Positions 17,698 to 40,130 are shown, counted from the stretch's first letter. The stretch: DNA of 64,000 bases from Campylobacterales bacterium (GCA_050252455.1 JBFWKW010000003.1:13699-77698), one strand, 5' to 3'. The notes: generated by a model not told the origin, from the sequence alone. Translations and numbers: made by a program.

Positions 17698-18241
17698 ACT
17701 ATTGGCGGCAATGTATGTCGCCGCTTTGGTAGTTTTGAGCATATCTGTTAATTTTTTGTTTTTCGCATTTATCGTGTTTGTATGTTTTTTGGTGCTGCAA
17801 AAAGGTCGCAGAAAAATTATATTTTTCAGATCTTTTTTTGCGGTTGCATTTTTTAGCGGGCTGACTTTACTGGGAACAGCTGCCAGCTCTGCTTTTTTTG
17901 GTGTCGATTTTGATTTGCTCCACATAGCAACTCTGTTTTGCAGGTCATTTGCAAGTGTTTTTCTGACCCTTTCTCTTGTCGATAGAATAGGGATTGTTAA
18001 TATATTTTCTTTTAAAAATGAACTTTCCATGTTTTTTGTAATGCTCTTTTCAAAAATAGAGAGCCTTAAAAAAGAGATGAATGAGTTTAGCGAGGCGGCT
18101 AGAAGCAGGGGGCTTAGAATGAATAACATAAAAGAGTCGACCAGGCTTTTATCCATTGTGGCTACGGCTTTGCTGCTAAAAAGTCTAGAGGGGTTTCGTG
18201 CGAGCGCGGAGGCTTTGAAATCAAGGGGACAAAGTGCTTAA
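17684..18241 (+). CDS. nikQ: ECF transmembrane T component (NikQ/CbiQ)
   Basis: Hydrophobic protein with two Arg motifs, ARSRG and LKSRG. Confidence 0.75.
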   Translation: MHKNKLLAAMYVAALVVLSISVNFLFFAFIVFVCFLVLQKGRRKIIFFRSFFAVAFFSGLTLLGTAASSAFFGVDFDLLHIATLFCRSFASVFLTLSLVDRIGIVNIFSFKNELSMFFVMLFSKIESLKKEMNEFSEAARSRGLRMNNIKESTRLLSIVATALLLKSLEGFRASAEALKSRGQSA

Positions 18242-37876: not shown

Positions 37877-38913
37877 TGAGACTATTTCACTTATCGCACA
37901 CGGATTTGGACGGTTACGGTTGCCAGTACGTATCCTCAAAATATATAGAGAACACAAGGTTTTTCAATTCCAATTACGGAAACGAAATTAACGCTAGACT
38001 CAAACAGATGACTTCTGAGATAGAGGCCTTAGAAGATAAAAGCGAAGAGATACTTTTTCTTATTACCGACCTAAATCTAAGCACTCAGGATTGCAGGTAC
38101 CTAGATGATAAAATCAGAGCTTTGAATACGAGCGGATATAACATTAAGTTGCAGCTTCTAGACCACCACATTAGTGGCGAGGAACAGGCAAAAGAGTTTT
38201 CGGATTGGTATACGCTTGATAACAACAGATGCGGCACAAAGCTCACATATGATTATTTCGGCGAGATAGACGAGGCGACTACAACCTTAATAAACGCTAT
38301 AAACGCCATAGATTTATGGAAAGAGGACCAACCGCTTTTTGAATTTGGCAAGACTCTTATGAGGCTGATTACGGAGACAAAAGAGCTAAATAAGCTTATA
38401 TTCCCGGATGAGAGCGTGGCTTATAAGCTGTATGCGCTTGAGAGGGCAAAAGAGTTTTTGGGTAAAGATGATGCCCATATAGCCCTTGACGATGCGATAC
38501 ATTTTTTGAAAAAAGAGTTTTTGAGGGGTGAAGAAGCGAACGATACGATAGACAATCTATCGAGCAGATACGTAACTCAATTATTGTCAACCAAAAAAGA
38601 TGAATTTAGCGTAGAGTATGCCGGATATACCGGCTTTCTCACCGTCTCTATAGGCAACGTATCGGTAATAGCTAACGGCTTTTTGTCGGCAAACGATGAG
38701 TATGACTTTTTTATAGACGTCTCTCCAAAGGGCAATATATCTATGCGCTCAAGCAATAAAGCGGACGTTAGCGAAATAAGCAAGACGCTTTTTGGCGGCG
38801 GCGGTCACCGAAATGCCGCGGGCGGAAGAGCAAATAATATAAAAGAATTTTTTACGTACGCAGAGTACAAAAAAGCAATAGAATCTATCATGAAACCGGT
38901 AATCGAGGGATAA
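37876..38913 (+). CDS. DHH/DHHA1 family phosphoesterase
   Basis: HTDLDG, ITDL, LLDHH, GGGHRNAAGG. Confidence 0.9.
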   Translation: MRLFHLSHTDLDGYGCQYVSSKYIENTRFFNSNYGNEINARLKQMTSEIEALEDKSEEILFLITDLNLSTQDCRYLDDKIRALNTSGYNIKLQLLDHHISGEEQAKEFSDWYTLDNNRCGTKLTYDYFGEIDEATTTLINAINAIDLWKEDQPLFEFGKTLMRLITETKELNKLIFPDESVAYKLYALERAKEFLGKDDAHIALDDAIHFLKKEFLRGEEANDTIDNLSSRYVTQLLSTKKDEFSVEYAGYTGFLTVSIGNVSVIANGFLSANDEYDFFIDVSPKGNISMRSSNKADVSEISKTLFGGGGHRNAAGGRANNIKEFFTYAEYKKAIESIMKPVIEG

Positions 38914-39218
38914 TGGAAGCTATCGAAACATATCAAAACTATATCGCTCTCGGATTTTTGTTAAATATTTTCGCTACCGTTGGATTCGGGATTTACAAGG
39001 CCTCAAATATTAGCGAGACGGAGGCTTTTTATCTCATTAGTACATATGAGGCAAAAGCCAATATGGGTAAATTGGTGATTTTGTGGTGTGTGCCGTTTCT
39101 TGGATTTTTGTATGTGTTTAAAGAGATTTTGACGCTTCAGACTAGCTACCTCAACAGAGGCGCTACGGTCTTTAACTATATGGAAGACAAGATAAAAAAA
39201 GAATCGAAAGAGAGATAA
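38913..39218 (+). CDS. Small two-TM hypothetical protein
   Basis: 101 aa, two hydrophobic segments, TAATG coupling. Confidence 0.7.
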   Translation: MEAIETYQNYIALGFLLNIFATVGFGIYKASNISETEAFYLISTYEAKANMGKLVILWCVPFLGFLYVFKEILTLQTSYLNRGATVFNYMEDKIKKESKER

Positions 39219-39232
39219 CAATCTCTCTTTTT
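39207..39232. terminator. Bidirectional intrinsic terminator
   Basis: AAAGAGAGAT-AACA-ATCTCTCTTT(TT), a 10-bp stem between convergent operons. Confidence 0.6.
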
Positions 39233-39353
39233 CTCAGCCAAATTTACCGATTTTTCTGCCGCTTTATGCGGCTAGCTTCAGTGGCTCAGCGCCTAGCGTA
39301 GCAAGAAAGGGCTTTGCTCGTTCTTGCGTGTGTTTGGCTCAGCCAAACTTTCC
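39233..39353. repeat. 105-bp multi-hairpin insert bounded by a degenerate direct repeat of the pstB 3' end (REP/MITE-like)
   Basis: CTCAGCCAAAtTTaCC (39233) versus CTCAGCCAAAcTTtCC (39338). Internal hairpins at 39258-39272, 39301-39327 and 39332-39348. Confidence 0.65.
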
Positions 39354-40130
39354 AGTAATGTATTCTTCTGTTAGTTTTTCTACAGGATTGATAAATAGCT
39401 CTTCAGTATGACCTAGTTCAATCAAATCGCCAAGATACATGAACGCCGTATAATCAGACACCCTTGCCGCTTGTTGCATATTGTGCGTTACGATGATGAC
39501 CGTTAGCTTCTCTTTTAGCTCAATTATTAGCTTCTCAACCGCAAGCGTAGATATCGGGTCAAGTGCGGATGTCGGTTCGTCAAATAGTAGCACTTCAGGC
39601 TCTACCGCTACCGCTCTTGCGATACAAAGTCTTTGTTGTTGTCCGCCTGAGAGCGAGTTGCCGTCCGCGTGAAGTCTATTTGATACCTCTTCCCATAGCG
39701 CTGCACCTTTGAGCGCCGCTTCTACTCTACCTTCAAGTTCCGATTTATTTTTTATCCCTTGAAGTCTAAGACCGTAAGCGACATTGTCAAAAATACTCAT
39801 CGGAAACGGAGTCGGTTTTTGGAAAATCATACCGATTTTTAGTCTAAGGTCGATAAGGTCAACATCTTTGTCAAGGATATTTTTCTTTGTATCTTCAAAA
39901 AGTATCTCACCCTCATATTTATTGCCCGGATACAGGTCGTGAATTCTATTAAAAGACCTAAGAAGGGTAGTCTTACCACAGCCTGAAGGGCCGATTAGCG
40001 CCGTGATGCGGTTTTTTGCTATCGGCATATTGATGTTTTTTAGGCTTGGGCTAGTAGTCCCCTTGTAGTAAAAATTGAAGTTTTTTACCTCTAGCTCAAG
40101 AGCCTCTTTTACATTAGCTATAGTTGACAT
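39339..40130 (-). CDS. pstB: Phosphate ABC transporter ATPase
   Basis: [34 protein letters not shown]. Confidence 0.97.

Follow-up and report, generated by a model that had tools for sequence, protein, structure and literature searches.

In one lineage of the species studied here, an intergenic repeat of about 77 nt, which is found throughout the genus and is of the GTAG-tagged REP/BIME-like type, has very likely inserted between the stop codon of pstB and the transcriptional terminator of this gene. The site lies in a window of 64,000 nt from a Campylobacterales bacterium (GCA_050252455.1, JBFWKW010000003.1:13699-77698), and all coordinates are counted from the first letter of this window. 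Such an event would have added 89 nt, consisting of 8 nt, a 75-nt core, and 6 nt, and would also have duplicated 16 nt of the target, namely the last four codons, TGA, and one G. The proximal copy of this stretch would still end the gene, and the distal copy would persist as a non-coding relic beside the old terminator. The finding is thus an ordinary, intact pstB gene with a small repeat in its 3' UTR, and not a recoding signal.

On the minus strand, pstB (39339..40130), which encodes a phosphate ABC transporter ATPase of 263 aa, ends after an ACT codon with GGA AAG TTT GGC TGA, the stop codon lying at 39341-39339. Exactly 105 nt downstream, the same strand carries a second gene end, GGT AAA TTT GGC TGA (39248-39234). 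If the G after each stop codon is counted, the two form a 16-nt direct repeat (39353-39338 and 39248-39233) in which only two positions differ, each of them the third of a codon. A partner with at most two mismatches at a distance of 16-150 nt exists for only 24 overlapping 16-mer windows of the 64-kb window. The first copy (GGAAAGTTTGGCTGAG; 39338..39353, minus strand), which comprises the last four pstB codons, the stop codon, and one base, is the one still in use; the second (GGTAAATTTGGCTGAG; 39233..39248, minus strand) is followed by the native intrinsic terminator of pstB (39197..39230, minus strand), a 10-bp stem with a subsequent T run that directly follows the stop codon in relatives. 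GAAAAAGAGAGATTGTTATCTCTCTTTCGATTCTTTTTTT, which follows the second gene end, was the sole terminator-like site in a scan of positions 38900-39500 (stem 39230-39207), and no terminator-like T run was detected after the repeat in the scan of the pstB site. On the plus strand, a convergent ORF of 101 aa (38913..39218) without any Pfam or NCBIfam match approaches the site, so that the repeat lies downstream of this ORF on the GTAG strand. The stop codon of the ORF is located inside the pstB terminator stem, and its DNA is 73-84% conserved in seven same-genus relatives (G001-G007).

The sequence between the two gene ends is composed of three parts, all given for the minus strand: 8 nt that lie outside the family consensus (CCAAACAC; 39330..39337), the 75-nt family core (ACGC ... 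GGCAGA; 39255..39329), and the 6 nt AAAATC (39249..39254), corresponding to the A/T-rich tail that follows GGCAGA in most family copies. The core contains hairpin 1 (39301-39327, with the arms GCAAGAA at 39301 and TTCTTGC at 39321), a small middle hairpin, and hairpin 3 (GCCGC-N5-GCGGC, 39258-39272). Its GTAG strand is the plus strand of the window (GTAG at 39298) and not the strand of the pstB mRNA. A 17-nt palindrome, GTTTGGC-TGA-GCCAAAC (39332..39348), spans the gene end and the left edge of the insert, with the stop codon in its 3-nt loop. The motif CTCAGC occurs three times (39233, 39285, and 39338), and the frame past the first pstB stop codon reads AKHTQERAKPFLATLGAEPLKLAA up to a stop codon, then SGRKIGKFG up to the next. 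The two gene ends 105 nt apart, the palindrome, the hairpins, GTAG, CTCAGC, and the reading frame had already been described in an earlier note on this DNA, and all of them were recovered in place. The 89-nt non-duplicated insert has a G+C content of 52.8%, compared with 42.7% genome-wide. A stretch of 171 nt folds with -55.3 kcal/mol versus -40.4 +/- 4.4 for shuffled sequences (z = -3.4), and the minimum-free-energy fold includes the stop-codon palindrome. An Rfam scan of positions 38800-39800 with E values up to 10 returned just three chance-level matches, far under the gathering scores.

We compared 541 nt around the site with 40 relatives by BLAST and then read out the loci. The site is empty in four species of the same genus (G003, G004, G005, and G008), in which pstB ends with GG(T/A) AAA TT(T/C) GGT TGA, directly followed by the GAAAAAGAG terminator and the same downstream sequence. 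At these empty sites the two BLAST pieces overlap by about 15-17 nt, which is the duplicated stretch. An empty pstB site had indeed been anticipated in relatives, and these species lack exactly 105 nt. In the other relatives the sequence after the stop codon varies: G006 and G007 carry a different hairpin, G001 reads TGA-TT-CCAAAC-CAC followed by unrelated sequence, and G002 has an inverted variant of the family repeat. The metagenome locus L183 also carries a family variant after the pstB stop codon, in the same orientation and with a gene end that is not duplicated.

The same comparison was made within the species with contigs of public sequencing runs over positions 39000-39640. The filled allele was recovered without a single difference from run X1, possibly the source sample (contig covering 39000-39585), and from run X2, which belongs to a different study (171-nt contig covering 39213-39381 with both junctions and both copies). 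The empty allele, which joins 39232 to 39338 and thereby skips exactly 105 nt (10 ambiguous letters), is represented by single contigs in X2, X3, and X10. These contigs differ from the window at 8 of 321 (X2), 12 of 373 (X3), and 5 of 231 (X10) positions and are thus about 97-98% identical; both alleles are present in one sample, X2. Because contigs exist both with and without the 105 nt, this is a real insertion, which was recovered from at least two studies and for which the species is polymorphic. As the outgroup species are empty as well, the ancestral state is the one without the insert.

The core belongs to a repeat family. An nhmmer profile was built from 21 copies, 20 from relatives and the one at pstB, and the pstB copy matches with E = 1.9e-23; its assignment also rests on a 56-copy alignment, covariation, and strand asymmetry (see below). 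This genome (G000) harbors six family copies, five full ones and one short form that lacks the middle hairpin, plus one fragment. The core is therefore not single-copy, and the idea of a multi-copy, structured, non-autonomous repeat is borne out by these six copies and their covarying hairpins. Among the 41 genomes including G000, the repeat part of the BLAST query matched only this genome and its eight same-genus relatives, so that all nine genomes of the genus hold the repeat; in the 32 genomes of other genera, this part of the query gave no match. The number of matches per relative ranges from at least 3 (G004, G007, and G008) to at least 25 (G002), and some relatives hold about 10 to 30 or more copies, all of these being lower bounds. 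A motif scan of one genome per species returned at least 80 loci. Of 80 such loci, 67 are in records labelled Sulfuricurvum, Sulfurimonas, Helicobacteraceae, Campylobacterales, or similar, and all 67 are nhmmer-positive; the other 13 are in other phyla, 11 of them without an nhmmer match and two with a partial match over the motif itself. A full-text literature search found no description of this family in Sulfuricurvum or Sulfurimonas, and the supplementary family tables of PMC3733652 may list a relative.

The consensus derived from 56 distinct copies consists of TnGTACGC, hairpin 1, GCTACGCTAGGCGCTnAGCCACTAAAGCTAGCCGC, a loop, and GCGGCAGA. At three loci from relatives (L124, L161, and L169), an extra module of about 35-40 nt (...CATGTAGCGAAGCGAAATTGCG...GAGCACAAAAGC...) separates the middle hairpin from hairpin 3; like BOX or BIME repeats, the family is modular. 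At three loci of G001 (L152, L153, and L154), a second, unrelated hairpin repeat (...AAGACCTAATCTTGGGCTTAGCTCAAGATTTGAG...) is found beside family copies without hairpin 3, and this genome evidently holds several small repeat families.

RNAalifold predicted three helices. Over the 56 copies, 91.2% of the cells of a 22-pair structure are paired, versus 79.1 +/- 0.6% in shuffled alignments. Double changes were counted in 151 cells, versus 50.6 +/- 5.7 after shuffling; none of 500 shuffles reached 151, and sliding the structure by 1-3 columns left at most 42 such cells. Pairs with double changes make up 13 of the 22 overall, 10 of 12 in hairpin 1, and all three in the middle hairpin. The sequences between the helices are nearly invariant, and CTAC (GTAG on the other strand), which abuts hairpin 1, is invariant or at least 90% conserved across all 56 copies. 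If folded as RNA, the GTAG strand is the more stable one in 52 of 56 copies (46 versus 3 for hairpin 1 alone), because a recurrent A.C mismatch, found in 27 of the 56, becomes a G.U pair on that strand. We also considered the variable stem of hairpin 1 as a guide that matches the flanks, but rejected this: over 57 copies, the best 8-mer match between stem and flanks averaged 5.81, compared with 5.90 for mismatched copies.

All six copies of this genome are intergenic, so that insertion into coding DNA, suggested before as a habit of the family, is not supported. In five of the six, one end lies within about 8 nt of a stop codon, and direct abutment was found for a TAG at one copy and a TAA at another; the orientation relative to transcription is mixed. 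When copies of the relatives were mapped onto the gene models of G000, 39 distinct sites were obtained. At 22 of 29 sites, transcription of the gene on the GGCAGA side runs towards the repeat, and therefore the repeat is usually located downstream of a co-directional gene on the GTAG strand. Convergent gene pairs are the commonest type (nine sites), to which the pstB site belongs, and divergent pairs are rare (two of the 39). For 32 copies of relatives, both flanks map to one place in G000, which holds a family copy in two cases, a diverged look-alike in one, and neither in the rest. This look-alike (C29, about 17970-18047; a hairpin 1-like stem, a CAAAG loop, and a short GC hairpin) is nhmmer-negative and lies where another species (L106) has its family copy. 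At such places G000 often has a simple G+C-rich, terminator-like hairpin instead, for example at C30:4545-4566, C1:201471-201512, and C6:23275-23307, and some of these look like an isolated hairpin 3 of the repeat, forward or reversed.

These properties are reminiscent of GTAG-tagged REP repeats, which Di Nocera et al. (2013, PMC3733652) describe from all proteobacterial divisions; GTAG and CGTC repeats are mentioned for Sulfurovum sp. NBC37-1 of the same phylum (PMC3733652, PMC2817692). According to the account in PMC3733652, such repeats show G-T pairing, which is taken there as a sign of RNA function, have complementary stem variants, lie between convergent or unidirectional ORFs, and supply stop codons with their ends. 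Likewise, GTAG in our family stands immediately at the base of an imperfect palindrome rich in G+C, the stem variants are complementary and show G-T pairs on the GTAG strand, and the copies are extragenic, mostly between convergent or co-directional genes, with ends that often abut stop codons. As in BIMEs, the unit is a composite of several hairpins. In contrast to REPs, it is a fixed three-hairpin composite of about 77 nt instead of a palindrome of 20-40 nt, and the six copies in G000 (at least 25 matches in G002) compare with a REP copy number that is given as usually more than 100 per genome (PMC2817692). We conclude that the family resembles GTAG-tagged REP/BIME repeats, but misses their high copy number and a cognate flanked transposase (see below).

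The structure and position of the copies would also fit a host 3'-end module, that is, a terminator or a set of RNA-stabilising hairpins, which was spread and kept by selection and would be functional for pstB or the convergent gene. The hairpins are kept by compensatory changes with G.U-type pairs on one strand, the repeat follows a co-directional gene on its GTAG strand at most of the oriented sites (22 of 29), and G000 has a plain terminator hairpin at many orthologous sites where relatives have the repeat; the location of GTAG repeats between convergent or unidirectional ORFs and the meaning attached to their G-T pairs (PMC3733652) point in the same direction. But the pstB site is polymorphic within the species, with both alleles in X2, the native terminator was retained beside the repeat, and the repeat itself is not followed by a terminator-like T run. 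Moreover, its orientation to transcription is mixed in G000, and the sole RNA contig at the site represents the empty allele. This explanation deserves some weight, yet we consider it rather unlikely and favor the insertion of a REP/BIME-like repeat. The only certain effect of this insertion is that the 3' UTR gains 105 nt and becomes strongly structured. REPs can slow 3' exonucleases or weakly attenuate transcription, and by analogy the insert could do so, too. Such an effect could apply on either strand, since the better-folding GTAG strand is that of the convergent gene.

The matched codons at the two gene ends had been read as a target duplication that leaves the end of the gene intact, and the 16-bp repeat together with empty sites that lack 105 nt agrees with this view. 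The further suggestion that such duplications flank family copies in general was not confirmed: local alignment of one flank to the other gave a mean score of 6.74 over 61 copies, versus 6.04 for mismatched pairs, and only three of the 61 copies exceed the 99th percentile. These are the pstB copy, a copy in G007, and a tandem arrangement in G001. The pstB and G007 duplications each comprise 16 nt with two mismatches, and 0.63% of mismatched flank pairs score as high. The repeat at pstB thus exceeds what chance would give, and the alleles of other species and samples that lack the insert prove it directly. The G007 site (site A, also filled in G001) is empty in six genomes, in which the stop codon of one gene overlaps or abuts the start codon of the next; in the filled genome, the start region is present in two copies, one of them still used and the other decayed. 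A second site (site B), filled only in G005 and empty in seven genomes, has a diverged second target copy of about 30 nt, with 20 of 31 positions matching. The arrangement in G001 (L159; G001:C78:4030-4394) contains a perfect 44-nt direct repeat at positions 84-127 and 196-239 of the reverse strand, with a period of 112. This repeat, composed of the family 3' hairpin and 24 flanking nt, encloses the first two-thirds (5' part) of a family copy and appears to be the product of a very recent duplication or insertion at this place. Flanking duplications are thus 16 nt long at pstB and about 16, about 30, and 44 nt in three other cases, and absent from most copies. Long duplications probably appear at younger insertions, or where the sequence landed on had to be kept.

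The two duplicated gene ends differ in two wobble positions. The distal copy has GGT and AAA, as do several other species, and GGA AAG is found in G001. Within the species, the empty alleles seem to have GGA AAG like the coding copy, as judged from the joint at 39232/39338 with no listed difference at 39348 or 39351. If this is so, the relic is the copy that differs, and the G of AAG, which adds a pair to the stop-codon hairpin, would have preceded the insert rather than having evolved to fit the hairpin. GGC is common to both copies and was otherwise found only in G006 among the relatives, the others of the genus having GGT; therefore, both copies are argued to come from this species. Synonymous divergence between filled and empty strains is about 0.17-0.2 (4-7 differences in 90-140 coding nt), from which about 1.4 changes are expected in 16 neutral nt on one branch. 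The chance that both changes fall on former third positions is about 0.05-0.08. It is improbable (rough estimate 0.01-0.05) that pure drift of the relic would hit both wobble positions and also produce the bases of other species. Either the relic drifted nevertheless, or, more likely, the coding copy would later have been replaced by another functional allele via homologous recombination. In the latter case, the original insertion would have occurred in a strain with the pstB end GGT AAA TTT GGC, into which a GGA AAG allele later recombined, and the replacing tract would have to end at the insert. In any case, the wobble differences are ordinary population genetics, and none of these models needs recoding.

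The same differences would also be accounted for if two alleles had been joined by illegitimate recombination, one copy of the GKFG-stop sequence stemming from the donor and the other from the recipient. A foreign or sister-strain segment composed of a pstB end, CCAAACAC, and the repeat could have been anchored by homology in pstB and joined 16 nt before the recipient stop codon, or a small circle could have integrated via a single crossover in the gene end. The copies indeed differ only synonymously, each of the two states being known from other alleles (GGT/AAA in several species, GGA AAG in G001 and apparently the empty conspecific strains). TGA-TT-CCAAAC-CAC right after the pstB stop codon of G001 resembles the left edge, and the spacer between pstB and its terminator independently holds related repeats in G002 (reverse) and L183 (same orientation). 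Against this, the shared GGC, otherwise only in G006 among relatives, fits a duplication within one lineage, three other family copies are also flanked by duplications of their own targets, and no donor with such an arrangement was found. Furthermore, the flanks are about equally similar to the empty alleles on both sides (2-3% divergence on the terminator side, 4-5% on the pstB side), without a step in relatedness. A junction of two alleles is therefore very unlikely in our view, and we retain the insertion with target duplication. Its left edge may nevertheless have a history shared with the G001 allele, beyond a simple insertion model. CCAAACAC was also considered as the family's own left end and rejected, because it is absent at other copies and the three G001 copies whose BLAST alignments ran into it merely have A-rich flanks. 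G000 contains no potential donor whose 8-nt and 6-nt edges match those at pstB.

As the earlier note had remarked, no transposase gene is located near the insert. G000 encodes a single Y1 tyrosine transposase of 221 aa on contig 19 (L148 1137..2133), which matches PF01797 and also the 'REP-associated tyrosine transposase' profile NF047646 with 83 bits (cut-off 80). The gene is bracketed by its own 19-bp inverted repeat with GTAGCC, which occurs nowhere else in the genome. Thus, the RAYT- or IS200-type transposase that was suspected elsewhere in the genome does exist as one RAYT-type gene, but a different repeat flanks it. Just upstream of it on the other strand, a fragment resembles by eye the C-terminus of an IS110-type transposase. 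Within the genus, the surroundings of all six PF01797 loci, taken to about 1.5 kb, are free of family copies, and no match there was better than 10 nt. PF01797 is present in four of nine genomes (G000, G001, G002, and G003), the repeat in all nine. The two copy-richest genomes, G002 and G001, are among the PF01797 carriers, and G005 (84% complete) is copy-rich without PF01797; this overlap is a hint at most. A retro-element-mediated, SINE-like insertion was considered and rejected: G000 (99.98% complete) has no match to the reverse transcriptase profile PF00078.

RAYT genes are described as always flanked by their REPs, and larger target duplications as absent from IS200/IS605 elements (Nunvar et al. 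2010, PMC2817692). The first statement does not fit our family, as the REP-type transposase of G000 is not flanked by the family repeat. The second may not fit either: most copies show no target duplication, but the pstB copy and three others have long ones (16 to 44 nt), which are not reported for an IS200/IS605-type mechanism; a full-text literature search likewise gave no account of target duplications at REP insertions. Like a MITE, the family is small, non-coding, multi-copy, and structured, and it shows an insertion polymorphism with a flanking direct repeat at pstB. Unlike MITEs, it has no terminal inverted repeats (the consensus ends TnGTACGC... and ...GCGGCAGA are not complementary) and no constant short target duplication; the duplications that do occur are long and differ in size (16, about 16, about 30, and 44 nt), and no parent IS was found.

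It is conceivable, though unlikely, that the family spreads by a process which duplicates long target stretches of differing size, 16 to 44 nt in the cases observed. This would set it apart from RAYT/IS200-type REP transposition, which leaves no duplication, and from MITEs, whose transposition involves inverted ends and a duplication that is short and fixed. Copy-choice or template switching at hairpin-stalled replication forks, or an unrecognised enzyme, could produce such duplications. If this were true, copies could settle on stop codons, start codons, and promoters and leave them intact. The arrival of REP-like repeats at new sites is, to our knowledge, poorly documented outside the gamma-proteobacteria, and the family described here offers a clear example of a REP-like repeat whose insertion is polymorphic within a species and can be read at both junctions. 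Should a duplication that preserves gene ends be regular, it would explain repeats that sit flush against stop or start codons in compact genomes and would point to a mechanism other than the known tyrosine-transposase route.

PstB matches TIGR00972 with 380 bits (cut-off 343), with residues 13-263 aligned to positions 2-248 of the 248 in the profile, so that the last residue before the first TGA coincides with the end of the profile. The protein also matches PF00005, and two BPD_transp_1 permease genes are located upstream of pstB. PstB is therefore intact: its translation ends at the first TGA, and strains without the insert make the same protein. Since PstB is complete at the first stop codon, the second gene end is a non-coding relic, and since the insert follows this stop codon, the fact that its length is a multiple of three has no consequence. 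Rickettsia palindromic elements (RPEs) are translated in frame inside proteins and have a length that is a multiple of three. The palindromic repeat at the pstB site also touches a coding region and shares this property of length, but it lies after the stop codon and leaves PstB unchanged; with the first TGA kept, a profile alignment that ends at the last residue, and an in-frame TAA inside the insert, the RPE-like reading of the earlier note does not apply.

In the bypass of T4 gene 60, matched Gly codons flank a non-coding gap of 50 nt, and a stop codon is part of the take-off hairpin. The pstB site is similar in having matched Gly codons around a gap and a stop codon in the loop of a 7-bp hairpin, and on these grounds a programmed bypass or readthrough was considered, with take-off at the first, hairpin-held GGC-TGA and landing at the second GGC. 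However, the gap measures 105 nt instead of 50, nothing coding follows the landing site, and, because TGA directly follows the landing codon, the product would equal the same protein. In addition, the family profile is already filled by PstB at the first stop codon, a TAA interrupts the frame between the copies, conspecific strains do without the insert, and a target duplication, as also seen at non-coding targets, accounts for the matched codons. Bypass is thus extremely improbable. The same holds for an assembly artefact that joined two strain variants: although the genome is a draft of 48 contigs and variants of the site co-occur in metagenomes, separately assembled contigs from the probable source run (39000-39585) and, independently, from another study (39213-39381, both junctions and both copies) show 0 differences.

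The hairpin over the pstB stop codon owes its stem to the first 6-7 nt of the insert (GCCAAAC), which can pair with the last bases of the gene. An analogous sequence, GTTTGG-TTGATT-CCAAAC, surrounds the pstB stop codon of G001, which lacks the full element at this site, and the stop codon is likewise found in a hairpin loop in L172/L187 and in G032 (L028). Recurrence of such hairpins was not significant among 42 distinct pstB ends, of which seven have a stem of at least 5 bp, versus 5.25 expected (conservative permutation, p = 0.22). In G032, which belongs to another genus, the last pstB codons form the 5' arm of a hairpin of at least 8 bp with the stop codon in its loop and a T run behind it, so that the terminator of pstB itself overlaps the coding end.
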